Sequence record: MT119360.1
Reading direction: 5' to 3' (one strand)
Source of the DNA: Enterococcus phage nattely
Length of the DNA: 64,000 bases
The notes below the pieces were generated by a model. The model saw nothing but the letters and a program-made list of their open reading frames with translations. It did no database searches and had not been told where the DNA came from. Both the position numbers and the translations under genes were made by a program. Positions 14,880 to 63,870 of the stretch are shown here, piece after piece. Numbering within the stretch: the stretch's first letter is position 1; each line of letters starts with the position of its first letter.

Positions 14880-14909
14880 ATAATTATAAAATTGAAAGGA
14901 AATGGTTTC

Positions 14910-30622: not shown

Positions 30623-31138
30623 ATGAATTTAGTTATTGAGGGTCCTAAAGCAAGTGGAAAAAGCACAATTTCTCACCACTTTATTGAAAAATATTTAACG
30701 ACATATGACCATATGAGCTCCGATAGCGATAACTCATTAAAAGGACATTTAAATTTATTAAAAGGCAAAAAAGGTGAATCATTAAATCATGTAATAGATC
30801 GTTTTTCAGTTGGGGAAATGATTTATCCTAATTTATATGGCCGTGAAGGAAAATTAAATTTAGATGAGTTTAATGTCACAATGAGTTCAGAAAACACATT
30901 ATACGTTATTCTTTATTCTTCGTCTGATCAATTATTATTTGATCGAATTGAATGGAGAGGAAGAAACACTGATGATGAAGATCATGATTTAGTGTCAAAA
31001 TCAAATTTTGCATTTAAAATGATTGGTGAATCATTGAAATATCGTGAAAATGTATTATTATTTGATGTTGCAAAAGTAGGATTAAAAGAAATTATTAAAA
31101 TAATTGAAGATAAATTGGAGGAGTTAAACAGATGTTAA
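30623..31138 (+). CDS. Thymidylate-kinase-like dNMP kinase (candidate hm-dCMP/dTMP kinase)
   Basis: P-loop VIEGPKASGKST. DRF motif (VIDRFSVGEMIYPNLYG) corresponds to the TMPK DRY/DRF motif. RBS GGAGG. 7-nt overlap with the next gene. Confidence 0.5.
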   Translation: MNLVIEGPKASGKSTISHHFIEKYLTTYDHMSSDSDNSLKGHLNLLKGKKGESLNHVIDRFSVGEMIYPNLYGREGKLNLDEFNVTMSSENTLYVILYSSSDQLLFDRIEWRGRNTDDEDHDLVSKSNFAFKMIGESLKYRENVLLFDVAKVGLKEIIKIIEDKLEELNRC

Positions 31139-32005: not shown

Positions 32006-32422
32006 ATGAAAATTAAAATTAATATGTTTAGTGATGAAGAAATTTATCAACCAAAAAGAGCACATTATAATGACGCAGGAGCCGATGTTCGCTCAACAGA
32101 AGAAATGTTAATTTGGCCAGGAGAAACTCGAAAAATTCCACTAGGTTTTGGATTAGAATTACCAGATGGATATATGGGAGTTATGATGAGTCGTTCAGGA
32201 TTAGCTTCAAAAGGATTAGTTTCACAAAATGCACCGGTTGATTCTGGATATAAAGGTCAAGTTCACGCAATTATGACAAATGTATCAGATGAAGTTATTA
32301 AAATTGAAAAATATGATAGAATCGCACAATTAGTAATTATTCCAGTTATGGTTGCAGATTTTGTCACAGAAACAGGTAGTGAAAGAACCAGTGATGGTTT
32401 TGGAAGTACAGGTTTAAAATAG
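32006..32422 (+). CDS. dut: Trimeric dUTPase-family dNTP pyrophosphatase (dUTPase and/or dCTPase)
   Basis: All five dUTPase motifs are present: AGADV, SRSGLA, PVDSGYKGQV, RIAQL and RTSDGFGSTG. Confidence 0.8.
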   Translation: MKIKINMFSDEEIYQPKRAHYNDAGADVRSTEEMLIWPGETRKIPLGFGLELPDGYMGVMMSRSGLASKGLVSQNAPVDSGYKGQVHAIMTNVSDEVIKIEKYDRIAQLVIIPVMVADFVTETGSERTSDGFGSTGLK

Positions 32423-32431
32423 GAGGATTAT

Positions 32432-33490
32432 ATGGAAATTTTATTATTGAATGTCGCAAATAACATTACGGATTTTCGAACAGTATCAAGTGGGGAAACA
32501 GTTTATCTAAAACAAATGTTAGAACAGTTAGGCCATGGAGTTACAATTGCTTCAAATAAGAATGGTGAATATGCGGTTGCATTTGAGGAAATTGAGGATA
32601 TTAACAATTTTGACAAAGTAGTTGTTTTACCTGCTTCACTGAACTTTTTCGGTGGTGTAGAAAACCCGACAATTATTAAAAATTATAAATTATTAGCAAA
32701 ATATAATGGAACTATTAATATTTTGCAAACTGACGCACGTTTGCCATTTAAGCAGTTGTGGCCAGCAATTGAGAAGCGGGGATGGGGATATAAAAAAGAA
32801 GAAGTTTGGATTAATGCCCCAATTAAAGTAATTGCACAATCAAAAAATTTAGATGAAGTTAAAACACAATATGAAAAAGAAATTTTCAATAACATTGAGT
32901 TTACACATTTTCCAATTGAGCGTTATGCTGGCATTGTGGCGCTAATGAATCCAATTGATGAAGTCGAAGAAAAAGAACATGATTTAGTTTATTATGGTTC
33001 ATTCCGTGGAGGCAATCGTGCTGCTAAAATGGCAGAATTTTTATGTGGAAACATTGTAGAAAAATTAGATGTCCACGTATTTGGAACAATTCGAGAAAAA
33101 CAATTAGCTAAAAGTAGCGATGGTCCATTTCCTTCGTTTGGTAAAAAGATGAAAATGAATGAAATTAGACAAGAGGTTAGCAAAAGTTTCTCAACTTTAA
33201 TTATTGGTGAAAAATTTTATAATAATGCAATGTTGACAGTGAGGGTTTGGGAAACATTAAGTAGCGACGCAGTAGTTCTCATTGACAACGATTTTGACTC
33301 TTACCATAATTTATTTCCTAATTCGCCATGGCGGTATGTTGAAAAAGAAGAAGATCTTATCGAAGTAGTAAAATCTCTTAAAGATGATGAAAATAAGAGA
33401 AAATTAGCGATTCAAGAGCAAAAAGAAGTGTTAGAAAAAATGATTGATTCTTCTCAATGGTTAAGAGATTTTGAAAATATTTTAGCTTAA
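32432..33490 (+). CDS. bgt: DNA beta-glucosyltransferase (T4 BGT homologue)
   Basis: Collinear similarity over about 350 aa to T4 beta-glucosyltransferase as recalled: MEILLLNVANNITDFRTVSSGETVYL, NFFGG, DARLPFKQLWP, APIKVIAQSKNLD, EFTHFPIERY, YYGSFRGGNRAAKMAEFL, VFGTIREKQL, LIIGEKFYNNAMLTVRVWETLSSDAVVLIDNDFD. Same length (352 vs 351 aa). Confidence 0.7.
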   Translation: MEILLLNVANNITDFRTVSSGETVYLKQMLEQLGHGVTIASNKNGEYAVAFEEIEDINNFDKVVVLPASLNFFGGVENPTIIKNYKLLAKYNGTINILQTDARLPFKQLWPAIEKRGWGYKKEEVWINAPIKVIAQSKNLDEVKTQYEKEIFNNIEFTHFPIERYAGIVALMNPIDEVEEKEHDLVYYGSFRGGNRAAKMAEFLCGNIVEKLDVHVFGTIREKQLAKSSDGPFPSFGKKMKMNEIRQEVSKSFSTLIIGEKFYNNAMLTVRVWETLSSDAVVLIDNDFDSYHNLFPNSPWRYVEKEEDLIEVVKSLKDDENKRKLAIQEQKEVLEKMIDSSQWLRDFENILA

Positions 33491-36945: not shown

Positions 36946-36959
36946 TATTTTTAGAAAAA

Positions 36960-36994
36960 AGACTGTTTACAAAACAGTCTTTTTTTGATATAAT
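36960..36994 (+). terminator. Fused terminator-promoter unit (AGACTGT-ttacaaa-ACAGTCT, T-run, TATAAT 36989-36994)
   Basis: TTTACA at 36966-36971 is in the loop. 17-nt spacer. Confidence 0.65.
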
Positions 36995-37027
36995 ATAAAT
37001 ATAAATTAATAGAAATGAGGTAAATTA

Positions 37028-40000
37028 ATGAGTTGGTTTAGTATTCACAATCATTCGCATTTTAGTAATTTTCGTTTAAGAGATGCAACCAATGCGCCAC
37101 AAGATATTTTAAGAGTCGCAAATGAAAAGGGATTGAAAGGAATTGTATTATCAGATCACGAGACTATTGCGGGTGCACCTACATTTTTAGATAATGCTAA
37201 AAAAATGAAAGAAGAAGGTAAATTACCAGAAGATTTTGTTGCAGCAATTGGTAATGAAGCATATTTAATTGATCGTAAATATGAGGAACCAATGAAAAAC
37301 CAAGAAAAAGTTAGATATTTTCATTTTTTAATGGTAGCAAAAAATCAACGTGGTTTTGAATTTTTGAAAAAACAAACAGCTAAAGCATGGGAAAATAGCA
37401 CATACTCAAGAGGTATGGAACGTGTTCCAACATTTAAAGATGATTTACAAGAATTAATGAAAGAATATAAAGGTGATGTAATTGCATCAACTGCGTGTAT
37501 TGGTGGCGAACTTCCGCAATTAATCCTTAAGTTAGAAGAATTTCAAAAATCAGGTGATGCGTTACGTATTGAAACAACAAAACGAGAGATACATTATTTC
37601 ATTCAATTTTTAGTTGAAACTTTTGGCCACGATAATGTATTTTTTGAATTACAACCATCAAAACAAAATGAACAATTGATTGTCAACAAATGGTTACCAA
37701 AAATTGCAAAAGCGTATAATATCAAATGTATCGTCACAACAGATGCTCACTATCTTACATTAGAACAGCAAGAATTTCATAAACAATATTTACAGGCATC
37801 TGAAGGTGAGCGTGAAGTTGAATCTTTTTATGCAACAACATATATTTTCTCATATGATGAATTATTGGAATATTTCGATAAAGAATTATTAGATGAATTA
37901 TGTGAAAACACATTGATTATTCGTGATATGGTTAATAATGAATTAAAATATAAACATGAGACAGTTATTCCACGATCACATATTCCACATTTTGAACAAG
38001 ATGAAAATGTGATGCAAAAAATTGATGAGACAAAATATCCGAACATTTATAAGATGATGAGATCTTCGGTTATTGAAGATAGATATTATCATTTTAAAGT
38101 TATGAAAGGTTTTGTTGAAAAAGAACAAGAATTTAATGATGAAAATTTAAGTAGAATTGATTTAGAATATAGTGAACTTCAAGCAATTAGTGAACAATTA
38201 AATCAACCGATGACGTCGTACTTTTTGGCAATGACAGAATTTGTTGATATTATGTGGGAATATTCATTAGTTGGGGTTGGACGTGGTTCTGCAGTATGTT
38301 ATTATACAAATTATTTATTAGATATTGTTCAATTAAATCCAATTAAATATGATTTACCATATTGGAGATTTTTATCTCGTGAATATGTTGGAGAATTTCC
38401 AGATATTGACGTTGATGCTCAAGGTAGTGAACGTGCAAATATTATTGAAGGTGTAAAAGAAAAATTTGGACATGAAAATGTGTTAAATATTGGAACTTAC
38501 ACAACTGAGGGACCTCGAGCAGCATCATTAACCGCATGTCGTGCATTCGGTTTAGATCCGGATACAGCACAAAATATCACAAATGCAATTCCGAGTGACA
38601 AGGGGTTCGCTTGGCCATTACAAGACGCATTTTTCGGAAATGAAAAAGAACACAGAAAACCAGATAAGCAATTTATTTATATGGTAAATGAATATCCAGG
38701 ACTGCAGGAGTTAATGTTACAATCTCAAGGTTTAGTAAGTGGACGTGGACAACATGCTTCAGGTGTTGTTGTTTTTCCAGACGGATATACTTCTTTAAAC
38801 ACAATGATGAAGACAAGTAAAGGGTTGCCAATCACTCAGTGGGATGCACATACAACTGAGGTCGCTGGTGGAATTAAATATGACTTTTTATCAATTAATG
38901 CACTAGATAGAATTAGAGCCGCAATTGATATGTTGTTAAAAGATGGTAAAATTGAATGGCAAGGATCATTACAAGAAACTTTCAATAAATATTTTCACCC
39001 GGACGTTTTAGATATGGAAAGTCAAGAAATGTTTGATATGCTATTTAATGGAGAAATTATTTCAGCTTTTCAGTTTGAAGCAAAAACAGGTAGACAAGCA
39101 TTAGAAAAAATTAATGCGCGTACATTCGATCAATTAGTTGCTGCAAATTCATTAATGCGTTTATCTTCAGATGGAGAACAGCCAATTGATAAATACATTC
39201 GTTATAAAAATGATTTAAACGAATGGGAAAAAGATATGGACGAATATAATTTAACTGAAGATGAAAAAGCAGTTATGCACGAATTATTAGATAAAAAATT
39301 TGGTGTGTGTGAAGTTCAAGAATCAATTATGAAAATTGCAATGCATGAAAAAGTAGCAAAATATAATTTGAGAGAAGCAAAAGGATTACGTAAAGCTTCA
39401 GCGAAAAAAGACCCAACAATTCAAGTTAAACAAAAAGAATTATTCTTTAAAAAAGGTAGAGAAAATGGAACTAGTGATAATTTATTAAATTATATTTGGA
39501 ATGAATGTTATGTTCCAACATTTGGTTATTCATTTTCAGAACCTCACGTAGCAGCATATACAATGATTTTAATGATTGAAATGAATATTGCTTATAGATA
39601 TGGGGTTCATTATTGGAAAGCAGCATGTTTGAATGTTGATGCGGGAATTATCGGAGAACTTGAAGCGGGGACAAAATACGGTAAAGTCGCAAAAGCATTA
39701 TCAAATTTCCGAGAAGATGTTATTCCACCGTCAGTTAATAAAAGCGATATTGGTTTTACACCGGATCAAAATACAGGCAAAATTATGTATGGATTAAAAC
39801 CAATTGTTGGTATGAATAGTAAATTAGCAAAACAAATTATTGAAGGTCGTCCATATAAAAATATGCAACATTTTATTGATCATAATGTTATAAATGGTGA
39901 TTTAACAAATACAAAAATGGTAACATTAATTAAAAGTGGATTATTTGATGAATTATATCCAAATAGGAAACAATTAATGGTAAATTTTGTTATGTATGTA

Positions 40001-40882: not shown

Positions 40883-40919
40883 GAGAAGTGTTTACACTTC
40901 TCTTTCTTTTTGATATAAT
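40882..40919 (+). terminator. Fused terminator-promoter unit (AGAGAAGTG-ttta-CACTTCTCT, T-run, TATAAT 40914-40919)
   Basis: 9-bp stem overlapping the dnaE stop codon. TTTACA at 40891-40896. 17-nt spacer. Confidence 0.65.
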
Positions 40920-40951
40920 ATAAATATAAAATTAATGAAAGAGGTTAGAAC

Positions 40952-44611: not shown

Positions 44612-44904
44612 TGGAACGTAAAGTTATTCATGTGTTTTATGACAAAAATCATACAACAGACTTAGCTGTCTTGAATGTTATTGAAGAAATTGAAAGCAAA
44701 TTTGATTCAAAATTAAATTTAATTATTCAACCATTAGAAGTTGAGCAAGATATTGTTATGACAAATGCATATGGTATTCCTTTATCTTTTGAAGGTGTTT
44801 ATATTATTGTATTAGATAAAGATAATAATCAAGAGCAATGTATTCATGCAAAAACAAAAATTCAAGCTTTATCTAAATTGAAAGGAACGAGCGTTTATAA
44901 ATGA
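44611..44904 (+). CDS. Hypothetical protein
   Basis: ORF with TAATG overlap. Confidence 0.45.
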   Translation: MERKVIHVFYDKNHTTDLAVLNVIEEIESKFDSKLNLIIQPLEVEQDIVMTNAYGIPLSFEGVYIIVLDKDNNQEQCIHAKTKIQALSKLKGTSVYK

Positions 44905-45527
44905 AATTGACTAAGCCAATATTTGTTCTTGCTGGAAAAACACTTTCTGGTAAGACAACATTATTAAATTATTTAATTGATGAATGCCATATGAATAATC
45001 ATAAAAAAGTAGAAAAAGTTGTAACAATCACGACACGCCCCAAACGCCCGGGCGAAATGGATGGCAAAGATTATTACTTTATTACTAATGATCAATTTGA
45101 TAAAATGGTAAAAGAAAATAAGATTATTGCTCCACGGGAATACCATGTTGCGACAGGAGAAGTGTGGAAATATGGAATTGAAAAAGGTTTTGAAAATGAA
45201 TATGAAATTCCAGTTGTTGTAACAGATGTTCAAGGAATTAAAGATTTGAAAAAAGAATTTGGAGCACATAATGTAATTGTATTTTATAAAGAAATTTCAA
45301 CTATTTTACAATTAAAAAGAGCGATGAGTCGCAAAGAAAATAGTCGTGACGAACAAATTCGTCGCATTATCTCAGATGATGAAGATTTTAAACATATTTG
45401 GGAATGGGCAGATTATATTCTAGATGATGAAGAAAGTAATATGCCTGATGATGCTGGTTTTATGTTAAATCAAGTGGATTATGAAATTGACCAATTCAAT
45501 GATCCTGACCGTGACATTTATATCTAA
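44901..45527 (+). CDS. gmk: Guanylate-kinase-like nucleoside monophosphate kinase
   Basis: P-loop VLAGKTLSGKTT and TTRPKRPGEMDGKDYYFIT, matching the GMP-kinase signature. Confidence 0.6.
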   Translation: MKLTKPIFVLAGKTLSGKTTLLNYLIDECHMNNHKKVEKVVTITTRPKRPGEMDGKDYYFITNDQFDKMVKENKIIAPREYHVATGEVWKYGIEKGFENEYEIPVVVTDVQGIKDLKKEFGAHNVIVFYKEISTILQLKRAMSRKENSRDEQIRRIISDDEDFKHIWEWADYILDDEESNMPDDAGFMLNQVDYEIDQFNDPDRDIYI

Positions 45528-47041: not shown

Positions 47042-47064
47042 AAAAATAAAAAAAATATATAAAA

Positions 47065-47150
47065 GGCTGTTTACAAACAGCCTTTTTTGGTTTATAATAT
47101 ATTTATAGTTAATTAATAAATAAATAAATAAACGAAATGAGGAATTTACA
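47065..47150 (+). terminator. Fused terminator (GGCTGTTT-ac-AAACAGCC), class-B-variant promoter (TATAAT 47093-47098) and conserved leader
   Basis: TTTACA at 47070-47075 is inside the palindrome. 17-nt spacer. Confidence 0.6.
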
Positions 47151-48095: not shown

Positions 48096-48121
48096 AATCA
48101 AAATGAATGGAGCGTATATTA

Positions 48122-48757
48122 ATGAACAAATTATTTTTATTAAACACAGAAAACGGTATTAAAAAAATTAGCATGTCGTACAACGATCTTTATGATCATT
48201 TTTTCAATATGATTCAAAATGAAACTTGGAAAATCACTAGAGTTTATTCTAATAGTATTGATAGAGATGAAGTAGAGCAGCAGTTCACAATCGAGTTATG
48301 GTACGCATTTGAAAATTATGATATTTCAACTGGTAACTGTATTTCAACATATATCTTCCACAGATTTAAAAAAGCAAAACGCGATTTATTATATCCTGTT
48401 CTGCAATCTAAACGCAATAAATGGAAAAATTCAAATGTTTCTTCATTAAATGTAAAATTAAGTGAAGACGATAAATATGATTCTTCAAATAAAAAATTTG
48501 AAAATGATGAAACATATCAACAAATGGAGAGCAATGGCGCAGAAGCTTTATTAAATGATGAAGCATTGGTTGATTTAATTTTATCACATTTTAAAACTGA
48601 TTCAGAATTAGATTTAATTAGAATTTTAATAGATAAGAAAAATTTTAGTGTTGTAAAATATGCAGAAAAATATTCAATTTCACGCGTGGCGGCAAATAAT
48701 CGAGTTAAAAAAATGAAAGAAAAAATGGCAGAAATTTTAATAAATGAATGGTTATAG
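48122..48757 (+). CDS. Sigma-70-family RNA polymerase sigma factor-like protein
   Basis: Region 2-like segment ELWYAFENYD...CISTYIFHRFKKAKRD and a C-terminal region 4-like HTH (VVKYAEKYSISRVAANNRVKKMKEK). Confidence 0.5.
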   Translation: MNKLFLLNTENGIKKISMSYNDLYDHFFNMIQNETWKITRVYSNSIDRDEVEQQFTIELWYAFENYDISTGNCISTYIFHRFKKAKRDLLYPVLQSKRNKWKNSNVSSLNVKLSEDDKYDSSNKKFENDETYQQMESNGAEALLNDEALVDLILSHFKTDSELDLIRILIDKKNFSVVKYAEKYSISRVAANNRVKKMKEKMAEILINEWL

Positions 48758-49813: not shown

Positions 49814-51742
49814 ATGGCTGATAAAATTAAAAAATTAGATGATCGCGCACAAGCTAGGGAAAAACTGAGCATATGGTATGGCTCACGTGATAATTTTTAT
49901 CACGGTGTAAAGGAGCTTATTGCAAACGCTGCAGATGAACTTAGAAATCACTCTAGTGAACCTGGTAAAATCGAAGTTACTTTATCCAATAATAATAAAA
50001 GAATTATGGTTAGTGATAATGGTAGAGGCATTCGTATTGGTGGCGAAACAGACGGTGAAAAAAATTATGACTTATTATTCCGTACACTATTTGCAGGAAC
50101 AAAATATGATGTTACCGAAAATGTGACAACCGGAACTAATGGAGTTGGAACAACCGTATTAAATTATACTTCAAAATTATTTGCTGTTATGTCACATTAT
50201 GATAACAAAGTTCATAAAGTACGTTTCATTAATGGTGGAGAACTAGATGGTGAATATATGGAAAAAGATATGAGTGAAATTGAAAATGCTCACGGTTCAA
50301 CTTTTGTTGTTGAACTTGACGAAACAATTTACACACATACTCAATTTGACCCTAATCATATCAAAGAAATTGTCAAACATTTTGCTGTGGCTTCACCAGG
50401 TATCGAATATCGTTTTGTTCATGATGAAACAGTTACAAAATTTAAATATGAAGGTATTCGCGATCGTTTTGATGAATTAATTGGAACAACTACAACGTCA
50501 GGTATTTTCACACTGGGCGAAGTAGAAAATACTAGTGAGGTTCCACAAATTGACGGGGAGGTAGTAGTTGAAAAAAACAAATATAATATTGTATTAACAA
50601 CCTCACCGGACACGCATCAAGAATCATATTTGAATATGACATGGTTAGAAGAAGGTGGCGCAATTAATGACGGGGTTTTAGATGGTGTTCGTTTATATAT
50701 GAATAAATATTGTCGAGCTAAAAAATTATTCCCTAAAAAAGTGACTGCTTTTAATAAAGAAGACATTGAAAATTCACTATCGTTTATCACTGTGGTTGAA
50801 TCAAACATTGTTGAATTTAGTAACCAAACAAAATTAAGTACAAATAAGAAAAAATATAAAGATGAAGTAAAAGTATATATTGAAAATTTATTAACAGCAA
50901 TGGAAGCACAACAGCCGAAAGAATTCAATAAATTTGTTGATCATTTGTTAACTGTCCAAAAGGCAAATGGCGCAAACGATCGTGCTCGTCAAAAATTGAA
51001 AAAACAATTGACGGAAAAAGTGACTGGAATTGGCAATAAGATTGAAAAATTAATTGATTGTGAAATTCATGGATTAGATGCGGAACTATTTTTAACAGAA
51101 GGTGATTCAGCGAATGGATCGATTGTTGATAGTCGGGATGATCATTTTCAAGCTGCATTTCCATTGCGTGGCAAAGTGTTAAATGTTTTACGCGCTTCAC
51201 CTGAAGATATTTTCAAAAATAAAGAAATTGTAAATATGATCAAAATTATTGGAACTGGAATTCAATTTGGTAAAAAAGATGATTTTGATATTGATAACTT
51301 ACGTTTTGGAAAAATTATTATTACAACAGACGCAGATGCAGATGGTGGACATATTATGTCACTATTAGTTGCATTTATTTATCGGTTTATGAAACCATTA
51401 TTGGAAAAAGGACATGTGTACGTTGCACAAACACCATTATATGAATTGAAATTTAGTGATGATTCAGTAGTTTACTTTTTAACTGAAGATGAAAAAAATA
51501 AAAATATTGGCAAATATGAAGGTCAAAAATATACTATTAATCGTCTAAAAGGATTAGGTGAAGTTGATGCTGAAACAATGGAAGCAACAACTATGAATCC
51601 AAAAACCCGTAATCTTATTCAATTAACAACAGAAAAAGCAGAAGATTTTCTAATGATTGATAAATGGATGAACGATGATGTTGAACCCAGAAAAGAAATG
51701 ATTAATAATCAACTTGCAAATTATGTTCACGACATTGATTAG
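49814..51742 (+). CDS. Type IIA DNA topoisomerase large subunit (ATPase plus TOPRIM; GyrB/ParE/T4 gp39-like)
   Basis: GHKL ATPase N-terminus. TOPRIM ELFLTEGDSA, PLRGKVLNV and ITTDADADGGHI. QTPLYE. Confidence 0.85.
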   Translation: MADKIKKLDDRAQAREKLSIWYGSRDNFYHGVKELIANAADELRNHSSEPGKIEVTLSNNNKRIMVSDNGRGIRIGGETDGEKNYDLLFRTLFAGTKYDVTENVTTGTNGVGTTVLNYTSKLFAVMSHYDNKVHKVRFINGGELDGEYMEKDMSEIENAHGSTFVVELDETIYTHTQFDPNHIKEIVKHFAVASPGIEYRFVHDETVTKFKYEGIRDRFDELIGTTTTSGIFTLGEVENTSEVPQIDGEVVVEKNKYNIVLTTSPDTHQESYLNMTWLEEGGAINDGVLDGVRLYMNKYCRAKKLFPKKVTAFNKEDIENSLSFITVVESNIVEFSNQTKLSTNKKKYKDEVKVYIENLLTAMEAQQPKEFNKFVDHLLTVQKANGANDRARQKLKKQLTEKVTGIGNKIEKLIDCEIHGLDAELFLTEGDSANGSIVDSRDDHFQAAFPLRGKVLNVLRASPEDIFKNKEIVNMIKIIGTGIQFGKKDDFDIDNLRFGKIIITTDADADGGHIMSLLVAFIYRFMKPLLEKGHVYVAQTPLYELKFSDDSVVYFLTEDEKNKNIGKYEGQKYTINRLKGLGEVDAETMEATTMNPKTRNLIQLTTEKAEDFLMIDKWMNDDVEPRKEMINNQLANYVHDID

Positions 51743-51826: not shown

Positions 51827-52039
51827 ATGTTGGACGTTTTAAATTATCAATCTAGATTAGCTATGATTAAACAACAAATGAATGCTAATATGGATATTAT
51901 TATTTTTTTAAGTTGTAAACAAACATTGGAAAAAGAAGAAATTGATGAGCTACAAAGTAGATTAAAAGCACATTATAGTTTGGCTCATAAATTTCAAGCT
52001 ATTGTTGAAAAACGTATTAAAATGGAGGAAGATAAATGA
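51827..52039 (+). CDS. Small protein between the two topoisomerase subunits
   Basis: RBS ATGAGGAATA. Promoter at 51760-51795. Confidence 0.45.
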   Translation: MLDVLNYQSRLAMIKQQMNANMDIIIFLSCKQTLEKEEIDELQSRLKAHYSLAHKFQAIVEKRIKMEEDK

Positions 52040-54024
52040 TTAATAAAGTTGGTTTAGGCGAACAATTAAACGATGCAATGATGGGAATGAGTGCATACAC
52101 TATTTTACAACGTGCAATCCCTGATTTTCGTGATGGTTTTAAACCAGTAAATAGACGTATTATTACATCAATGCTTTTAAATAAGACTTTTAATTTCACC
52201 AAAAGTGCAACAGTTGAAGGCCGCGTAATGCAATTGCATCCACATGGAGGATCATATGGTTCAATCGTTGGATTAGTTCAAAAAGATCGAAATAGTCTTC
52301 CATTTTTAACTGGAAAAGGAAGTTGGGGTCAATATACATCAAGTGACCAACAACCAGCTGCTGCTCGATACACTGAAGTAAAATTAGGTAAAAACGCACT
52401 TGAAGTAACAAAAGAGTTAAAAGAAAAAAGTGTTGATTATGTACCAAATTATGATGGCACAATTAATGTCCCCGAAGTTTTACCTGTGACATATCCATCA
52501 ATTTTAACTCAATCACAAAGTGGTATCGCAAATGGTTTTGCAACTTCTATTTTATCATATAATATTCATGAATTATATGATATGATTGATGATATTTTAA
52601 TGTTACGTGGAAGGACAAAACCAATTTATCCAGATTTTCCAACAGGTGCAACGATCATAAAAGATGATGAGGAAGCACTTAATGTAATTAGAACTGGGCG
52701 TGGTTCATTTACAATGAGAGCAAAAATTGAAATTGATAATAATAAATTAATTGTAACTGAAATTCCTTATGGTGTAAAACGTGAACAAATCATTAAAAAA
52801 ATTATTGAGTTGAATAAACGTGGAACACTAAAAGAAGTTACAGATGTTCGTGATGGTACGTCATTTAAAGGTATGAAAATTGTAATTACAGCTAAGAAAA
52901 ATACAGATATGAAAGAATTAATTGTAAAACTGTATAAGCTTACTCCACTTCAAGCGAAAGTTAGTGCTAATATGAACGTATTAATTGATGGTAGATTAGA
53001 AGTTTTAGGAGTAGAAGAATTATTATTAAATTGGATTAAATGGCGTGTATCTGTAATTAAACGTGGATTAAATAATAAATTAACAAACATGAAAAAAGAT
53101 TTACACATTTTAGAAGGTTTGCGTAAAATTGCTTCAGTTGATGAAGTTATTCGTATCGTTCGTTTCGAAGATGATGATAAAGTTGATCAATTGTTAATGG
53201 AAGCATTTAATTTAACAGAAGAACAAGCAGAATATATCGGTAAAATGACATTACGCTCATTAAATGAAAAACGTATCCAAAATAGATTAAAAGATATTGA
53301 AGATTTGGAAAGTAGAATTAAAGATTTAGAAGAAACAATTGATAATGATGGATTATTAAAAGTTATTTTGCAACGTCGTATGATGGAAACAATGAAAGAA
53401 ATTGATGCTCCAAAACGTAAAACTGAAATTATCACAATTGATGAAGAAAAAGAAAAAGAAGTTCATAAGATTGTAAAAGTAAAAGAAGTAGATAATGCTA
53501 AATATTTTGTGTGCTTCACCAAAAATGGATGGTTATTAAAAGGTAAAAATAAAAATGATATGGAATCACAATTAATTTTAGGTGATGAAATTGTTCAATA
53601 TTGGGAAGTACAAAATGATAAAAATATTGTTCTATTTATGAAAGATAAATCAGTTAGAAACATTAAAGTAAAACAAATTAAAGATAAAGAATTTGTTGGA
53701 AATGATGCTTTATTTGCTGAATGTAATGTTGATGAAAGTGCATTAGTTTTATTAGTCTTTGATGAAGGACATATCGTAAAAATTCCAATTGATGCATTTG
53801 TGAAAAATCGTCAAATTATGGAAAAAGGATATTTTGATGGTGAAAACTTAATTTACGTAAAACAATTAAATGGTGAAAAATTAATCAATATTTTCATTGG
53901 TGATAAACAAAAACCAAAAACAATTGAAGTTGAAACTATCAATATTAAAAAGAACCGTTTAGCGCGTGGTCAAAAACTATTTAATAATAAAAAATTAGAA
54001 AAAGTGAATGTCACTCTGGGTTAA
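52036..54024 (+). CDS. Type IIA DNA topoisomerase subunit A (GyrA/ParC/T4 gp52-like)
   Basis: DGFKPVNRRII motif and the active-site tyrosine region AARYTEVKL. Confidence 0.85.
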   Translation: MINKVGLGEQLNDAMMGMSAYTILQRAIPDFRDGFKPVNRRIITSMLLNKTFNFTKSATVEGRVMQLHPHGGSYGSIVGLVQKDRNSLPFLTGKGSWGQYTSSDQQPAAARYTEVKLGKNALEVTKELKEKSVDYVPNYDGTINVPEVLPVTYPSILTQSQSGIANGFATSILSYNIHELYDMIDDILMLRGRTKPIYPDFPTGATIIKDDEEALNVIRTGRGSFTMRAKIEIDNNKLIVTEIPYGVKREQIIKKIIELNKRGTLKEVTDVRDGTSFKGMKIVITAKKNTDMKELIVKLYKLTPLQAKVSANMNVLIDGRLEVLGVEELLLNWIKWRVSVIKRGLNNKLTNMKKDLHILEGLRKIASVDEVIRIVRFEDDDKVDQLLMEAFNLTEEQAEYIGKMTLRSLNEKRIQNRLKDIEDLESRIKDLEETIDNDGLLKVILQRRMMETMKEIDAPKRKTEIITIDEEKEKEVHKIVKVKEVDNAKYFVCFTKNGWLLKGKNKNDMESQLILGDEIVQYWEVQNDKNIVLFMKDKSVRNIKVKQIKDKEFVGNDALFAECNVDESALVLLVFDEGHIVKIPIDAFVKNRQIMEKGYFDGENLIYVKQLNGEKLINIFIGDKQKPKTIEVETINIKKNRLARGQKLFNNKKLEKVNVTLG

Positions 54025-55800: not shown

Positions 55801-55868
55801 AATAAAAAAATGTACACCTATATAAAAATATAGGTGTACATAAATAAAAATGAAAAGAGGAAAATAAG

Positions 55869-57587: not shown

Positions 57588-57797
57588 ATGACTAAACAAA
57601 CTATGGAAAACAAAATCAATGAATTAAGAAAAGAAGCTGGATTAATGTACGGTGACTTAGATAAAGCATTAGCTGAAGGAAACTATGATTTATATGAAGA
57701 ACTTGGTGATATTATGAGCGCTAAATATGAAGAAGCTCGTCAATTGATTATTGAATTTAACGAAACATTTGGAGAAACTCCAAACTTACTTTTCTAA
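57588..57797 (+). CDS. Small conserved protein, paralogue of 8816..9031
   Basis: MENKINELRKEAG...GDIMSAKYEEARQLIIEFNETFGE. Class-B promoter/leader at 57507-57585. Confidence 0.55.
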   Translation: MTKQTMENKINELRKEAGLMYGDLDKALAEGNYDLYEELGDIMSAKYEEARQLIIEFNETFGETPNLLF

Positions 57798-57829
57798 TAA
57801 AAAATATAAAATGAAATGAGGAATATAAA

Positions 57830-58036
57830 ATGCAAGAAAATTACAAATACGCAGTGAACATCTTAAATGCAAAACACGAAAGTGATAGAGAATGGTTACA
57901 AAAATTATTTGATGAATCAATTCCTAAAACAAAAACTATTTTTGAATTTGATACAGAAGAAGAAGCTGATGAGTTTGAAAAGAAATTAAATAAAGATGGA
58001 CATAAAACTTTTAGAAATAGAATCATTCATTTTTAA
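57830..58036 (+). CDS. Hypothetical small protein
   Basis: RBS ATGAGGAATA. Confidence 0.5.
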   Translation: MQENYKYAVNILNAKHESDREWLQKLFDESIPKTKTIFEFDTEEEADEFEKKLNKDGHKTFRNRIIHF

Positions 58037-58119
58037 AAATATTTACAAAATGTTCTCACTATGATATAATATTATCATAGTGAGATATAAATAAAAAAAA
58101 AAGAAAAGAGGAACATATA

Positions 58120-58281
58120 ATGAATAAATTAATTTTAGTAGTGGGATTATTAGTAGCTTGGTTTTTTGTAGTAACAAACGTTACATTATCTTCTCAATTT
58201 TTACAAACGCTTATGGTTGGAACTTTAACAGTTTTTATTGGTATTTTAGAAATTGGAGTTTTAGTTGGAGGTAAAAAATAA
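58120..58281 (+). CDS. Small membrane protein (53 aa, 2 TM)
   Basis: Promoter at 58040-58080. RBS AAAAGAGGAAC. TAATG overlap with the next gene. Not in the ORF track. Confidence 0.35.
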   Translation: MNKLILVVGLLVAWFFVVTNVTLSSQFLQTLMVGTLTVFIGILEIGVLVGGKK

Positions 58282-58841
58282 TGGAAAAATTTACATGTTT
58301 TAATTATAATCCTACTAAAGCCCGAATTGGTGATTGTGTATTAAGAGCTATTACCGCGTTTGAATATGTTGAAAGAAAATTAAAAAATGTTGAACAAATT
58401 TCTAGTGAAGAATTATATGAAAAAGTGAAATTAGGAATTACAAGTTATGGAGATTATACATTACAACGTTATTTTGAAAAATATTTGAGTGAACATGGTT
58501 ATGTTAGAGTAGAAGCATTTAATTATATTGATAATATTAGAATAAGAACAGAAAATCAGTTAGCTATGTTTTGTAAAAATTTTAATGTTATGGCTTTAGC
58601 ACTTTCAAATACGCATATGGCTTATGTCGACCCGATTTTAGGAGTTGTCGATACATGGGATAGCAGAAGAAAAAGATTGGAATATTTTTATATAAAAGAG
58701 GAAGATGTTGAAAGATTAGAATTAAAATTAACGGAAGATGTAGATGGAAATACTAATATTAAACGTGTAAGTACAAAAGAAAATACTATTGGTTATAATA
58801 AGATTAATGGTAAATCTCCAATACAAATGGGATTAAAATAA
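58281..58841 (+). CDS. Hypothetical protein; last plus-strand gene
   Basis: ORF followed by the bidirectional terminator. Confidence 0.5.
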   Translation: MEKFTCFNYNPTKARIGDCVLRAITAFEYVERKLKNVEQISSEELYEKVKLGITSYGDYTLQRYFEKYLSEHGYVRVEAFNYIDNIRIRTENQLAMFCKNFNVMALALSNTHMAYVDPILGVVDTWDSRRKRLEYFYIKEEDVERLELKLTEDVDGNTNIKRVSTKENTIGYNKINGKSPIQMGLK

Positions 58842-58885
58842 AAAAAATAGGAGCCAATCGGTTAAGATTGACTCCTATTTTTATT
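58840..58885. terminator. Bidirectional rho-independent terminator at the convergence point (A8-ATAGGAG..CAATC-ggttaa-GATTG..CTCCTAT-T5)
   Basis: Hairpin flanked by an A-run upstream and a T-run downstream, lying between convergent genes. Confidence 0.65.
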
Positions 58886-59861
58886 ATATCCCAAATGCTT
58901 CAAAGAGAATTTCTTCACTTCTGTCCATTAGGTAAGATTCAGTAGTTGATACATCCTCATGATGAGCGATTAATTTTAATACTTTTAAATCTAATTGGTC
59001 TTTGCCTAATTCTTTTAACACATGATGAGTTCCGTTAGAATAATTATCTAATGATGAATGGCGGAAACAGTGTGGATTAATATCTACAACTTCTCCAGTT
59101 TTCAATTCTAAAACTTTTCTGAAATATAGACAAAAATTATATAATGATTCATATGATCTTGCTCTAATATTTTCGCCTTTTCCAGCAACCCATAAAGAGT
59201 CAATATTATCATTTCCGCGTTGATCAAACCATAATTTTGCTATTTCTCTAGTGCGATCAAAATATAAAAGTTGGAATTTTTTACCACGTTTACCAATAAC
59301 TTCATTAGTCATTTTCGATTCTAAGAAATTTTGTTTTTTAACTTGTAGAATTTCATTACGACGAGCAGCACTATCATATGATAAAGATAAATATAAAGCC
59401 ATTTCATATTTTTCTTCTTCTAATAAATGTTCTAAAATAATATCAATTTGCTCATCAGTTAGAAAAACAATATCTCTAACTTTTTCACCTTGAATTCCTT
59501 TAATTGCACGCATAACATTTTTATCATAATCATATTCATCTTCATCATCTTCAGCAAAAGCTAATAAATTTCGAATTGAACTTTGAAAACGATTAATTCT
59601 AGCTGCGCTCGTGCCCATTTCTTGCATTGATAAGAAAAATGTTCGAAACATGCGTTTCTTAAGGTCTAATATTGATTTATTTCCTGCATTTTGAGCTATC
59701 CAACAGAAAAAGCCTTTAATGTCGGCAGTATATTGGTAAATAGTTTTTTCAGCTCGACCTTTACTTTTAAGTTCTAAAATATAATCTTCTAATAACATTT
59801 TGTTTTCCGCATTAACTTCTTCCCATATTTTTTCATCAAATAAATTATTGCGTTTTGCCAT
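58884..59861 (-). CDS. int: Tyrosine recombinase / phage integrase family protein
   Basis: Catalytic-domain signatures AARRNEIL (Arg), HCFRHS (H-x-x-R-H) and LIAHHEDVSTTESYL (His...Tyr nucleophile). N-terminal SAM-like core-binding domain. Confidence 0.7.
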   Translation of the reverse strand: MAKRNNLFDEKIWEEVNAENKMLLEDYILELKSKGRAEKTIYQYTADIKGFFCWIAQNAGNKSILDLKKRMFRTFFLSMQEMGTSAARINRFQSSIRNLLAFAEDDEDEYDYDKNVMRAIKGIQGEKVRDIVFLTDEQIDIILEHLLEEEKYEMALYLSLSYDSAARRNEILQVKKQNFLESKMTNEVIGKRGKKFQLLYFDRTREIAKLWFDQRGNDNIDSLWVAGKGENIRARSYESLYNFCLYFRKVLELKTGEVVDINPHCFRHSSLDNYSNGTHHVLKELGKDQLDLKVLKLIAHHEDVSTTESYLMDRSEEILFEAFGI

Positions 59862-59890
59862 ATCAATTTCTCCATTCTTTATTAAATATA

Positions 59891-59920
59891 TGTAAAAAGG
59901 AGAGCGTTAACTCTCCTTAA
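59891..59920 (-). terminator. Rho-independent terminator downstream of the endolysin (AAGGAGAG-cgttaa-CTCTCCTT plus T-run on the minus strand)
   Basis: 8-bp perfect stem. A plus-strand A-run is a T-run on the minus strand. Confidence 0.6.
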
Positions 59921-59928
59921 TTTTACAA

Positions 59929-61071
59929 TTAAAATCCCCATCCCCAGGTATTAGCTGGATTATTATCGTTAGGGCCAATTGCTACATAGCTACGTCCACC
60001 ACCATAGTTAATATATGTTAACCATACATAACCATTAGCAACAACGTAACCATCATATGTGAACGACATTCCTGCATTATAGTAGTCTAATGCTGGGCTG
60101 TTTGGATCGACATCACCAGAAACTGGTAATTGGATAGATGTTGTGAAAGTTCCGTAAGCAGGATAAATAGTTGCAGTATTTTGACTTGGCACTGCTGGTT
60201 TATTTGGGTTCCAAATTTCAGCGATGTCGCCATCATTTGCATATCCTAATAATTTACCACTGTTACGAATTTCATACAAGTTTTTACGTCCATCTAACTT
60301 CTTAGTGATTGTTCCAACTTGTGTCCATAATGTATCTGCATTGATGTGTTGGCCAATTGGTGCATCTGGGTTTTTGTAGATTGTTGTGAAACGAACGTTG
60401 TCTCCGACTTTATATCGAGGTTTATTCGGTTTAGCAGGTTGATCAGGTTTGTTTGGCACATTAGCTGTAGAATCACTAGAAACTCCATTTGCCAAATCTT
60501 GTGCTAATTGTGCTTTACTAATACCCATTTCAGCTAAATATCCATAAGGATCTTGGTGATCGCCCCAAATATTGTCAGAAACCCATTTATGTGTTTTAAT
60601 ACCATTTCCAGGTTGGTCCAACGTCAATGGAATACCAAAATAATTAGCGGCATCACGAGCTAAAGAGATATATGCTTTATAGTTCTTTTTAAATAAAGCA
60701 GGATCATGGGTGTGTTGTAATTCAATTTGAACTGGAGCATATGGATTGGCATTACCCGCTCCCCAACTTACGATTCCCCATTGACCAACACGATAATCAA
60801 TTCCACCATCACCGATGATGTCTGTTGTATATGCGTTAAACCAATTTCTTTTCATGTAAGTCGCTTCATTTCGGCCAGTTGCTGTCTCATTTGCTGTTTC
60901 GTGTAAAATGATATAGTTTGGTGAAGCTGCATATCCGGCGCCCTCACCTGGAGCTAAATTAAATTCATTGTTAATGGTATAATCTGCAGCTTCAGCTTTA
61001 TCTACTGCTCCAAAACCTAATCCAATCATTAAAGTTCCAGCAATTGCCATAAATAATTTACTTGCTTTCAT
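59929..61071 (-). CDS. Endolysin: secreted N-acetylmuramoyl-L-alanine amidase (Amidase_2/PGRP-like) with C-terminal SH3b-like cell-wall-binding repeats
   Basis: N-terminal signal peptide MKASKLFMAIAGTLMIGLGFGAVDKAEA. Amidase region YIILHETANE...QIELQHTH. C-terminal YKVGDNVRF..W..G and GY-rich repeats. Confidence 0.7.
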   Translation of the reverse strand: MKASKLFMAIAGTLMIGLGFGAVDKAEAADYTINNEFNLAPGEGAGYAASPNYIILHETANETATGRNEATYMKRNWFNAYTTDIIGDGGIDYRVGQWGIVSWGAGNANPYAPVQIELQHTHDPALFKKNYKAYISLARDAANYFGIPLTLDQPGNGIKTHKWVSDNIWGDHQDPYGYLAEMGISKAQLAQDLANGVSSDSTANVPNKPDQPAKPNKPRYKVGDNVRFTTIYKNPDAPIGQHINADTLWTQVGTITKKLDGRKNLYEIRNSGKLLGYANDGDIAEIWNPNKPAVPSQNTATIYPAYGTFTTSIQLPVSGDVDPNSPALDYYNAGMSFTYDGYVVANGYVWLTYINYGGGRSYVAIGPNDNNPANTWGWGF

Positions 61072-61151: not shown

Positions 61152-61517
61152 TTATTTATCTTTCTTTTTATTACTTTCGTTTAATTGTCCGTCATCTAAA
61201 AGATCTTCAATATTATCCCAATCTTTAATTTTACCACTTAAAATTGCTGCCACAATTTTAATTAAATCTTTACCTCCAGCTGCAATCAAACCAGCTAAAA
61301 AACCGTCATAAACACCGATTGCAATGGAGTTACCTGTGATCCATGTTGCGAAAATACCAATTACTACACCAGTTGTCACGGCAATAATCGGTAATAATCT
61401 ATTGTCGATTTTCTCAACATTTTTAAACAAGTATGTCACTAAAAATACTCCAGCACCAATCATTAAAATATAATTATTGTGCAGAGCTGCTGTTGCATTT
61501 GCGATCATTTCTAACAT
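61152..61517 (-). CDS. Holin-like membrane protein (2-3 TM, charged C-terminus)
   Basis: TM segments ILMIGAGVFLVTYLF and IAVTTGVVIGIFATWITG. Lysine/acidic tail. Lies adjacent to the lysin. Confidence 0.5.
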   Translation of the reverse strand: MLEMIANATAALHNNYILMIGAGVFLVTYLFKNVEKIDNRLLPIIAVTTGVVIGIFATWITGNSIAIGVYDGFLAGLIAAGGKDLIKIVAAILSGKIKDWDNIEDLLDDGQLNESNKKKDK

Positions 61518-62298: not shown

Positions 62299-63870
62299 TT
62301 AAGGAAGTTCATCATATGAACCATCCGCATTTCGTTTAGTAATATAAACCGTTCCACCGTCAAGAGAGCCAGCTGAAGGGAACGGGTCTTTTGTGAAAAA
62401 TGTAGCTTGTAAATAATGGTTTCCATTTTTATTACTTGCCCAACGAACATCATTATTACTTTGTTCCACAATTCCGGCATATTGGATAAGAGCTGTATTG
62501 TGAAAAGAATATTGAGTAGTATTCACAGGAATATTGTAAATTGTACCAGCCATATCAAAGAATGGTCTAAACCCAACTGGGAACCAATAAAACTTCGGCA
62601 TACTATTTTCAAATTTAGTATTGTCTTTTACGTTTACACGCCAGTTAGCGACAATAGTGTTACCTTGTCTAAATAACTCCACTTTAGACTCAGCATCGTT
62701 TATTGCATCTTTTGCTTTTTGTTCCCATTGCGTGGTATCAAGCGATGATCTACGATACCGATAAAGAATCGCTTCATCTTCATTTAAAATAATTTTATCA
62801 TTGTTTGTGATTATTCCAGTAAAGTTTAATGGAGTACTAACATTTATTTTTGATGTTCCCGCTTTTGGAATAGCACCAACTTGATCTGCTGTAACGCCAT
62901 GTGGATTATTTTTATCATTTTTATGTGTTTGCAACTCATTTTTTACTGGTAAAATTTCAGCAGTAACTTCATCTCTTGTTGGATAATTTGATAAATCGGG
63001 TGACTGGATTTTCCATGCAGTCCATTGATTACCATAAAATGAACGAGTATAAATTTGTCCAGAGCTATGAGTGAAACGTTGAATAATTAATGAAGTTTGA
63101 TTAAATACCTCTAAAGTACCGGATGAATAATCTGCCATAGGGCGATTTACACCTGTTGCTTTATTCACTTGATAAAAACCAGACTCTTTAATAGTATTCC
63201 AGTCTTCACTTGAGATTTGACCTTTAATCAACATTACTTCATCTTTCATTGCGGCACCATTATTTTCTAGTGCCGCCATTCTTTTTTCAAAATCACTAAT
63301 CGTGCTTTGGATTGTATCTAATCTTCCATTTAAAGTATCAACTCTAAGTGCTTCAGCGTCAATCTTTTTCGCTAATTCATCAATGTGTTGTTTACTTAAT
63401 TCATCATAATCATTTAATGCTTTTTTGTAAGCATCATTTAATTTATCAATCAATTTATTGTATTCTGTTATAATTGTTTCTGCTTCTTTTGCAGTTATGT
63501 CTGCAACTTCTAAGACAGAAATTTGGAAATTTGAAGTCGTGCTTCTTTGTCTTGATTCAGTTTCTGTGATTGAAAAATAAGCTCTTTCATAATCTCCAGG
63601 AACTCCAAAAGCCATATTTGGAAAAATATAATCAAATTTACCATTTTTATCATCACGATTTACAACACCTTCTGTGTCCATCACGACTGTAGCATTTCCG
63701 TTTGTCATTCCTTCAAATGTGATTATATATCCAGTTAAATCAATTGGCTCATCATTTAAGGTGAGATAGACGGTAACTTTTTGAACGCTACCGTCACCAA
63801 CTCTCCCGTAAATGATAGGCGTTAATCTTGGCTGTTTAGATAAATCAAAATTCATTTCTCTATTTGCCAT
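62299..63870 (-). CDS. Baseplate/receptor-binding protein with a BppU-like N-terminal domain, coiled coil and C-terminal head domain
   Basis: The N-terminal roughly 120 aa follow the BppU_N pattern (FDLSKQ...GRVGD...ITFEG...AYFSI). Central heptad repeats. RBS GGAGTGATAGG. Confidence 0.5.
   Translation of the reverse strand: MANREMNFDLSKQPRLTPIIYGRVGDGSVQKVTVYLTLNDEPIDLTGYIITFEGMTNGNATVVMDTEGVVNRDDKNGKFDYIFPNMAFGVPGDYERAYFSITETESRQRSTTSNFQISVLEVADITAKEAETIITEYNKLIDKLNDAYKKALNDYDELSKQHIDELAKKIDAEALRVDTLNGRLDTIQSTISDFEKRMAALENNGAAMKDEVMLIKGQISSEDWNTIKESGFYQVNKATGVNRPMADYSSGTLEVFNQTSLIIQRFTHSSGQIYTRSFYGNQWTAWKIQSPDLSNYPTRDEVTAEILPVKNELQTHKNDKNNPHGVTADQVGAIPKAGTSKINVSTPLNFTGIITNNDKIILNEDEAILYRYRRSSLDTTQWEQKAKDAINDAESKVELFRQGNTIVANWRVNVKDNTKFENSMPKFYWFPVGFRPFFDMAGTIYNIPVNTTQYSFHNTALIQYAGIVEQSNNDVRWASNKNGNHYLQATFFTKDPFPSAGSLDGGTVYITKRNADGSYDELP

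Follow-up and report, generated by a model that had tools for sequence, protein, structure and literature searches.

Introduction

An integrase-type gene was noticed in Enterococcus phage VPE25, for which a Southern blot gave no integrated phage and a prophage ancestor was suggested (Duerkop et al. 2016), and the same observation was made for phage 9183 (Canfield et al.). Across the published VPE25 and 9183 studies, lysogens were absent by Southern blot, polymerase chain reaction (PCR) or read mapping. The Planchet paper uses the term 'ex temperate' for such phages, the announcement of phage 6ec describes an integrase in a cos phage that was lytic by experiment, and the VPE25 supplementary table gives a Bacillus subtilis protein as the best hit of orf_105, the recombinase gene of that phage. 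Here we describe the corresponding tyrosine recombinase gene of Enterococcus phage nattely, which lies in a 64,000-nt stretch of sequence record MT119360.1, referred to below as the window. The gene and the puzzle that it poses are already published, and its role has been called unclear or that of a temperate relic; new here are its conservation rank, its ratio of non-synonymous to synonymous substitution rates (dN/dS), its link to the pBS32 lineage, its late expression, an upstream TACATA element, an Xer-like outgroup and a search in which no intact chromosomal copy was found. The reading that we favor, tentatively and at slightly under an even chance, is a Cre/Xer-like recombinase whose substrate is circular DNA of the phage itself; the enzyme would be a phage-plasmid inheritance still needed late in lytic growth, with substrate, reaction and role inferred.

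The closest described counterparts are the recombinases of the B. subtilis plasmid prophage pBS32 (WP_020846125, NC_021809.1 12998-13975, annotated as a 'site-specific integrase') and of Geobacillus phage GR1, which are orthologs with 64% and 63% full-length identity to the nattely protein, both 325 amino acids (aa) long. They occupy the same place after the lysis genes, at a convergent junction in a syntenic genome. Both genomes differ from the window in having their own actin-like partition and replication genes and in being without the beta-glucosyltransferase/hydroxymethylase set; pBS32 lives as a plasmid, whereas the window phage is without a plasmid module and lytic. The nearest sequence outgroup is formed by the Xer recombinases of B. 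cereus-group plasmid prophages, elements that are 42-58 kb temperate phages with partition systems and for which a role in dimer resolution is likewise presumed.

More distant systems share some of these features. The Cre/loxP system of phage P1 is alike in being a single two-domain tyrosine recombinase of a phage with plasmid-living relatives, and the function proposed is again to resolve multimers of the phage's own DNA or to cyclise it. Cre has just 12-13% identity to the nattely protein in a structural alignment, though the fold probability is 1.0, and P1 packages by headful with terminal redundancy, whereas the window lineage is cos-type. To our knowledge, late expression is no known feature of P1 cre, unlike the window recombinase. 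The chromosomal Xer systems (XerC/XerD-dif, XerS-difSL, XerH-difH and archaeal XerA) have the same domain architecture and the same spacing of catalytic residues; XerA and XerH are among the top structural matches of the nattely protein, and XerC, XerA and XerD are its best curated families. It differs from them in scoring far under the equivalog cut-offs, and no dif-like site was found beside the gene and no link to FtsK is evident. Lambda-type integrases belong to the same superfamily and use the same catalytic chemistry, and the lambda Int core aligns structurally, but the window recombinase is without an arm-binding domain and is expressed late, not early, and neither Xis, attP/attB nor intact integrated copies were found for it. 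For gp50 of the Tyrovirus Bacillus phages Thrax and Tsamsa, the authors argue against a role in lysogeny and describe an 11-6-11 dyad right after the stop codon. Gp50 and other tyrosine recombinases located in phage late modules are similar to the window recombinase in being co-oriented with late or structural genes; Tyrovirus genomes differ in their size of 160-170 kb, in encoding three recombinases and in the sequence conservation of the dyad, whereas the dyad of the window is variable and terminator-like.

A two-domain tyrosine recombinase

The gene was located from the open reading frame (ORF) list and Pfam as follows.

58884..59861, minus strand: tyrosine recombinase gene, ATG start, 325 aa

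The preliminary description had claimed a complete tyrosine recombinase at this position, and the domain content, the invariant catalytic residues and the predicted fold bear this out. Pfam places a SAM-like core-binding domain at the N-terminus (Phage_int_SAM_1, residues 25-104, E 4.5e-8, passing threshold) and the catalytic domain behind it (Phage_integrase, PF00589, residues 133-313, E 1.7e-8, 34.9 bits against a 27.1-bit cut-off). In an alignment of 17 orthologs with 60-86% identity, residues R167, K191, H264-x-x-R267-H268, H301 and Y310 are present without exception, and the spacing from R167 to Y310 equals that of XerD, except for an 11-residue insertion ahead of H301. The AlphaFold2 model shows the two-domain tyrosine-recombinase fold with a mean predicted local distance difference test score (pLDDT) of 84.6, and a Foldseek search with this model returned XerA, IntI, Tn1549 Int, XerH, the lambda Int core and Cre, each with a probability of 1.0. 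Because identity to these matches is only 12-20%, the fold search settles the class of the enzyme and not its subfamily (Xer, Cre, Int or IntI).

Both Pfam and PHROGs call the protein integrase-family, and a sequence search of the PDB gave a single weak match that was uninformative. The top curated NCBIfam models were XerC (76 bits, cut-off 335), XerA (58.3 bits, cut-off 220) and XerD (47.3 bits, cut-off 329.6); since these scores lie far under their cut-offs, the recombinase is Xer-like and no Xer equivalog. No lambda-type arm-binding domain was found by Pfam or in the AlphaFold2 model, in which some 20 residues precede the SAM-like domain (start at residue 23-25). Judged from its sequence and its model, the recombinase is a complete 'simple' two-domain enzyme of the Cre/Xer type with intact catalytic residues.

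Conservation and purifying selection

The window has 96% identity over 8 kb to Enterococcus phage vB_EfaS_140 and 88-90% identity over the same 8 kb to VPE25, VFW and vipetofem, and it is collinear with the VPE25 record starting at the first base, within the Andrewesvirinae. The recombinase protein is 100% identical to that of VPE25. In eight pairwise genome comparisons across Enterococcus, Staphylococcus, Bacillus and Geobacillus members, the recombinase ranked first or second by identity, level with the large terminase (TerL) and above DnaB, primase, TopoIV and PolIII-alpha. Between the window and pBS32, for example, identity is 64% for the recombinase, 53% for DnaB, 49% for TopoIV-B and 47% for PolIII-alpha, and between Planchet and pBS32 it is 63.1% for the recombinase and 62.5% for TerL.

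The nucleotide differences are almost entirely silent. Between the window and VPE25, 7.8% of the bases of the recombinase gene differ, with 75 synonymous and 1 non-synonymous differences and a dN/dS of 0.002; the ratio is 0.008 against VFW, vipetofem and metagenomic copies. Compared with Denvervirus, it is 0.06 for the recombinase, 0.15-0.16 for the endolysin and 0.21-0.23 for the holin. These substitution patterns indicate that the recombinase is functional in the lytic Enterococcus phages and under purifying selection.

Homologs of the recombinase, at 58-100% identity, filled all of the 120 best protein clusters, and the longest contigs of these clusters concentrate at 75-101 kb, with none above 101 kb. 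The gene is present in 96 isolated-phage records (43 Staphylococcus, 20 Bacillus, 18 Lactobacillus and 10 Enterococcus, plus Geobacillus, Leuconostoc and others), and the match covers at least 80% of the protein length in 94 of them. The searches with TerL and with the recombinase agree in the Enterococcus (10 and 10 records), Staphylococcus, large Lactobacillus, Leuconostoc and Geobacillus phages that they returned, so that among the 75-97 kb genomes the recombinase behaves like a core gene. In Planchet, pBS32, 6ec, GR1 and a Pediococcus element, it closes the late arm, behind the lysis genes. The lineage consists of 75-97 kb cos-type siphoviruses of Bacillota and includes VPE25 and 9183 (Enterococcus), 6ec and SEP9 (Staphylococcus), Ldl1 and Lenus (Lactobacillus), GR1 (Geobacillus) and the plasmid prophage pBS32 (B. 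subtilis).

Late expression and the upstream TACATA element

In row-scaled RNA-seq data, VPE25 orf_105 rises from -1.21/-0.79 at 10 min through -0.34/0.04 at 20 min to 0.90/1.40 at 40 min, and the endolysin behaves similarly. The endolysin gene and the region between it and the recombinase have the following features.

59929..61071, minus strand: endolysin with Amidase_2 and SH3_5 domains (Pfam), neighbor upstream of the recombinase

59862..59928, minus strand: intergenic control region upstream of the recombinase, with terminator hairpin, TACATA box and GGAG Shine-Dalgarno sequence

59897..59918: terminator hairpin of the endolysin with T-run, dG -15.8 kcal/mol, z -3.7

59889-59894: TACATA box, starting 33 nt before the recombinase ATG

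This arrangement, read from the ORFs and the hairpin at 59897-59918, agrees with the earlier claim that the recombinase directly follows the endolysin and its terminator and is co-oriented with the lysis genes. The 58 nt upstream of the recombinase (59862-59919) are 100% conserved against VPE25. TACATA occurs upstream of recombinase orthologs at 16 of 25 loci, against 1.1 expected, in a layout in which a hairpin is followed directly by TACATA 24-45 nt ahead of the start codon.

The element is shared with other late genes. In the late arm of VPE25, three of the four coding-strand TACATA sequences are intergenic (before a small gene upstream of TerL, a post-capsid gene and the recombinase), and Planchet has such elements before the post-capsid gene, the endolysin and the recombinase. 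The hairpin and TACATA combinations stand 28-52 nt upstream of start codons, at positions 84069, 77826 and 60705 of the VPE25 record and 10113, 29806 and 31044 of Planchet, and a second one in the window lies at 55837-55842. Within coding sequence, TACATA is nearly absent from the coding strand. A search of the non-coding segments of the window with blastn-short also found a 17-nt identity, TTTACATATATTTAATA, in pBS32 at 38162-38178. The hairpin and TACATA together are probably a late-gene promoter or an RNA processing element, and we read the element as placing the recombinase, past the terminator of the endolysin, in a late expression unit of its own.

Two other interpretations of this region were rejected. 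As a recombination site or dif mimic specific to the recombinase, the hairpin and TACATA failed because they also stand before other late genes, in VPE25 as well as in Planchet. The 8-mer TTTACATA upstream of the recombinase was considered as the -35 element of a SigN-type promoter, and no -10 element was found at the right spacing; the candidates would overlap the Shine-Dalgarno sequence.

Relationship to phage-plasmids

Plasmid records with a recombinase homolog number 73, every one of them non-mobilizable. Identity is 60-80% for 42 of the 73, and the 30 that were listed are Bacillus plasmids of 82.9-85.8 kb, mostly labelled B. subtilis and including pBS32 of strain NCIB 3610. pBS32 is syntenic with the Enterococcus phages: its first arm carries HNH-TerS-TerL, the tail genes, the lysin and the recombinase, and its converging second arm carries PolIII-alpha, dUTPase, guanylate kinase, RusA, a sigma factor, TopoIV-B/A and Rho_N. 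The extra genes alfA/alfB, tk and repN separate the sigma factor of pBS32 from its TopoIV-B, whereas the same interval of the window is only about 1 kb. The isolated phage GR1 has genes for actin-like partition and replication proteins at the position of the pBS32 module, in addition to the recombinase. By homology comparison and annotation, no homolog of AlfA, ParM or Rep was found in the window or in VPE25, and so the place of the window phage among Cre-like plasmid resolvases rests on ancestry and not on its own lifestyle.

The outgroup comprises recombinases of Waukesha92, BtCS33, BMBtp3, TP21-T and B. thuringiensis plasmids of 45-58 kb, which are about 40% identical over 96% of the length. 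The Waukesha92/phiS58/pBMB46 group and BMBtp3 have been described as plasmid prophages that carry a protein like ParM along with a recombinase of the Xer family 'believed' to resolve dimers.

Some further observations concern these relatives. pBS32 (44718-45275) and GR1 (3545-4090) have a second, short 'integrase' gene of about 180 aa near the start of the early arm, for which BLAST found no counterpart in the window, and in pBS32 a cargo toxin/immunity pair adjoins the recombinase. A Pediococcus pentosaceus 'plasmid' record, NZ_CP118742.1, was not used as proof of plasmid carriage in Lactobacillales, the record being linear and scrambled. It has fragments of TerL and capsid genes out of order, the recombinase after the lysis genes, and a helix-turn-helix (HTH) regulator together with an ImmA/IrrE protease; this last pair may mean that some Lactobacillales members are temperate.

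Proposed role of the recombinase

The DNA on which the enzyme would act is modified in the lytic Enterococcus phages, for which three genes of the window are relevant.

32432-33490: homolog of T4 beta-glucosyltransferase, E 2e-61

31132-31977: thymidylate-synthase-like gene

32006-32422: dUTPase/dCTP-deaminase-like gene

VPE25 DNA has been described as modified and restriction-resistant (Duerkop 2016), and this gene set together with that published resistance supports the label of a DNA-hypermodifying phage with glucosyl-hydroxymethylcytosine (glucosyl-hmC) that the preliminary description had applied.

A role for the recombinase has to accommodate an intact gene that is under selection, widely distributed, syntenic and transcribed late, and that has no intact integrated copies. 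Under the Cre/Xer-like reading, its substrate would be the phage's own circular DNA, and recombination between two copies of one short site would interconvert monomeric and multimeric circles. In the plasmid-prophage members, it would provide Cre-like multimer resolution alongside the plasmid inheritance driven by AlfA and Rep. In the lytic Enterococcus phages, without a plasmid module and with glucosyl-hmC DNA, the gene is kept and is transcribed late from its TACATA unit, and the enzyme would presumably process replication products around cos packaging. A replisome with its own TopoIV may give monomer circles by theta replication; by recombining such circles at a specific site, the enzyme would then provide the multimers on which the terminase acts, or put them in order. 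This rationale would agree with the co-conservation of the recombinase with TerL, TerS and HNH. A dimer or concatemer role like that of Cre or XerD had been suggested from the sequence at the outset, and the comparative evidence (pBS32, GR1, the Xer-like outgroup, the Xer models, the missing arm-binding domain and late expression) favors it, with the mechanism a matter of deduction. The more demanding claim is that a whole lineage of virulent Bacillota siphoviruses requires the recombinase for processing its DNA late in lytic growth, where the enzyme would turn monomer circles from theta replication into multimers, or the reverse, for packaging, beside the cos terminase and on glucosyl-hmC DNA; we consider this possible but rather unlikely.

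Several points weigh against the Cre/Xer-like reading. No recombination site was identified by dyad, palindrome and non-coding searches. Shared dyads (11-nt arms with a spacer of 6-8) across the window, Planchet, pBS32, GR1 and 6ec were terminator-like matches only. Multimer resolution is not obviously useful in a pure lytic cycle, because a cos phage packages from concatemers, and the late role proposed above is a rationalisation. Glucosyl-hmC late in infection could impede recognition of the site unless the site consisted of A+T only. Phages of the lineage encode Sak4, RecJ and RusA functions, which could make or resolve multimers by homologous recombination. In the literature searched, no experiments on any member of this recombinase family were found.

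The site searches also gave the following results. Long palindromes sought genome by genome included none common to the genomes, and comparison of the window's non-coding segments with four genomes by blastn-short gave promoter motifs only. A lox-like 13-8-13 site was not found in the dyad and palindrome scans, and no dif-like site was found beside the recombinase. The only 11-6-11 dyad near the gene lies just 3' of it.

58843..58882: bidirectional intrinsic terminator 3' of the recombinase, with a 17-bp stem between A and T runs

Parsed as 11-6-11, this dyad was rejected as a lox/dif-like site; it is a strong bidirectional terminator (dG -26.4 and -23.2 kcal/mol for the two strands, z about -6.6) with a variable stem sequence, and it marks the meeting point of the late minus-strand arm and the early plus-strand arm. 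Between phages whose recombinases are identical or 86% identical, the stem sequence varies in a compensatory way, the Denvervirus dyad is unrelated, and 58843-58882 lies outside the conserved non-coding blocks. A pair of hairpins at 762-823 was likewise set aside, as its loops have a 3-nt geometry, its sequence is absent from Planchet and it looks more like a single-stranded DNA or origin structure.

Alternative explanations

All of the alternatives considered here (a carrier-only lifestyle, chromosomal integration, host-directed activity and inversion or shuffling) rank lower than the Cre/Xer-like reading. The recombinase might serve only an unrecognised plasmid-prophage or carrier state in nature, in dimer resolution and stable inheritance, and have no lytic role. 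The relatives make this conceivable, as pBS32, GR1 and the outgroup are plasmid prophages or carry plasmid-maintenance genes; the phage has its own replisome, ligase and TopoIV, by which self-replication would be possible in principle, and strong selection proves function but not the lifestyle in which it acts. We nevertheless consider this explanation improbable, given that homologs of AlfA, ParM and Rep are missing from the window and from VPE25, that the rise of transcription late in infection and the box of the late-gene type speak for the lytic programme, and that the published Southern blot, PCR and read mapping found no lysogens. Glucosyl-hmC DNA is also a poor fit with long-term carriage, and contigs with the exact protein are all phage or metagenome contigs of at most 86 kb.

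A true integrase would insert the phage into a chromosome in a host or condition so far untried. The integrase-family call of Pfam and PHROGs agrees with this, and the end of the structural and lysis arm is a common place for the integration cassette in temperate siphoviruses. No contig above 101 kb carried a homolog among the 120 best clusters, and the exact protein of the VPE25 or the pBS32 type was on no contig above 200 kb. When 185,579 species, each represented by one genome, were scanned by pattern (Enterococcus genomes not being exhaustively covered), two loci came up, neither of them an intact prophage: an 89.6-kb contig of a metagenome-assembled genome and a truncated copy in Bacillus testis. 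The latter (NZ_LN851186.1, 5992-6690) retains aa 3-228 at 65% identity and lies among chromosomal housekeeping genes (GNAT, HAD, NUDIX, CstA, SelO and AmtB); it is the sole chromosomal trace of the recombinase family that was seen and counts in favor of integration. So does the IMG/VR contig IMGVR_UViG_3300006456_000001 (226,865 bp), which has a single 6ec-like ortholog 3 kb from its end. This contig is too long for one genome of the lineage and may be chimeric, belong to a larger element or represent an integrated copy; a concatemer was rejected, as it holds only one copy of the gene.

Against integration stand the missing arm-binding domain and the context of the gene. The statement that no repressor or antirepressor lies nearby held up: neither of these nor Xis was found beside the recombinase by PHROGs and Pfam on the adjacent ORFs or in the VPE25 and Planchet annotations, and the window has no tRNA gene and, in its repeat list, no att-like repeat. 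The published Southern and PCR tests were negative, expression is late and not early, and the DNA is hypermodified. With no intact integrated copy found either, the view that this is hardly a classical integrase can be maintained, a true integrase being very unlikely. A temperate phage that modifies its DNA only in the lytic cycle, which had been offered as an alternative, finds no support in the published tests or in the search for chromosomal copies.

Activity on host DNA, or catalysis other than recombination, is also conceivable, for instance cleavage of a host dif-like site or topoisomerase-like nicking in takeover or late DNA metabolism. The catalytic residues are all conserved, and the 8-mer TTTACATA is the only part of the upstream region that resembles the XerD arm of the Firmicute dif site. 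In our own comparison, only 8 of 28 dif positions match, the TACATA box precedes other late genes too and is better read as a regulatory element, and no precedent was found in the literature searched. We give this explanation little credence.

That the enzyme inverts segments of the phage genome or exchanges cassettes in it, as a shufflon or integron recombinase does, is very unlikely. Such activity might involve the adjoining hypervariable block of small genes, where a variable array of small ORFs with repeated hairpin-plus-promoter units lies just downstream (about 55.5-58.8 kb) and where metagenome contigs break; IntI is among the top structural matches, and a cargo toxin/immunity pair stands beside the pBS32 recombinase. 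The hairpin-promoter units are spread along the whole early arm and not just near the gene, though, and the fold matches do not separate subfamilies. Relatives of the window are collinear over the recombinase region with no orientation polymorphism, and the listings of repeats and palindromes contained no inverted repeat that suggested itself as a pair of sites, which does not favor the genome inversion proposed earlier; the excision of a mobile cassette, proposed with it, is at odds with a syntenic position that is fixed in every genus. A mosaic boundary at the gene was also rejected as a scar of site-specific exchange, homology to VPE25 and vipetofem running unbroken through the gene and breaking at 57592-58031. 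Finally, the literature's own interpretation in several genome papers, a decaying temperate relic without present function, is hardly credible and, as far as the selection data go, effectively refuted by a dN/dS of 0.002-0.06, top-ranked conservation across genera, matches spanning 80% or more of the protein in 94 of the 96 phage records, and a perfectly conserved 58-nt upstream region before a gene that is transcribed.

Genome layout and other observations

The late arm continues upstream of the endolysin with the rest of the lysis cassette and the baseplate.

61152..61517, minus strand: holin of the lysis cassette, Phage_holin_5_2, E 3.7e-6, 27.5 bits (under the 29.2-bit cut-off)

62299..63870, minus strand: BppU baseplate protein (Pfam), upstream of the lysis genes

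The holin has a second Pfam match to Phage_holin_5_1 (E 7.5e-4, 20.3 bits, under the 22.4-bit cut-off), and two small membrane or coiled-coil proteins are encoded on the same strand between the lysis genes and BppU. The cumulative GC skew reaches its maximum exactly at the junction of the late and early arms beside the recombinase.

On the other side of this junction, four small plus-strand ORFs at 57588-58841 gave no PHROGs function, and Pfam, applied to 58281-58841 only, likewise gave nothing. They belong to the region of about 55.5-58.8 kb, a variable small-ORF array with repeated hairpin-plus-promoter units in between, of which 57592-58031 is hypervariable and matches neither VPE25 nor vipetofem. 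Several metagenome and Logan contigs with an identical recombinase stop about 1.33 kb downstream of the gene (near window position 57.55 kb), at the edge of 57592-58031.

At the other end of the window, positions 1-1060 are non-coding; the initial 100 nt or so are G+C-rich and are followed by arrays of short repeats of the TATATAC/ATGTAC type. Because the window and the VPE25 record begin at the same point, the G+C-rich start is probably a cos end. The two adjoining perfect hairpins at 762-823 have GCGAAGC tips and are 100% conserved against VPE25, and Planchet has twin hairpins of a different sequence at the equivalent place. They may be an origin, a single-strand initiation structure or an operator.

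The early arm has more than 25 promoters of one design, in which GTTTACA stands in the loop or the 3' arm of a terminator hairpin and TGATATAATATAA follows about 17 nt on (e.g., 13734-13768, 14851-14891, 36946-37015, 40883-40935 and 47061-47118). They are perfectly conserved against VPE25 and were found again in Planchet and 6ec. They look similar to the published SigN consensus of pBS32, TTTACGTTT ... AGATATAA, and a SigN homolog in VPE25 has been noted before (Burton et al.). The window encodes a SigN-like sigma factor (48107-48757), 29% identical to SigN of pBS32, and a pair of TopoIV/gyrase-like subunits, B and A (49814-51742 and 52036-54024) with 49% and 40% identity to pBS32.

Significance

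'Integrase' is a routine flag for a temperate phage in phage-therapy screens, and therapy candidates of the VPE25, 9183 and 6ec type carry this gene. A core gene that is conserved, selected and expressed late, and that has left no trace of intact chromosomal integration, changes how such a flag is to be read. It raises the question of what job a Cre/Xer-like enzyme has in the lytic cycle and whether it can act on hypermodified DNA. If the recombinase were indeed a required late-lytic enzyme, it would be a site-specific recombinase essential in a strictly lytic cycle and no accessory of lysogeny or plasmid maintenance. The link of lytic Enterococcus, Staphylococcus and Lactobacillus phages to pBS32 and GR1 offers a tractable model in the B. 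subtilis ortholog, by which the long-noted integrase puzzle is now directly testable.

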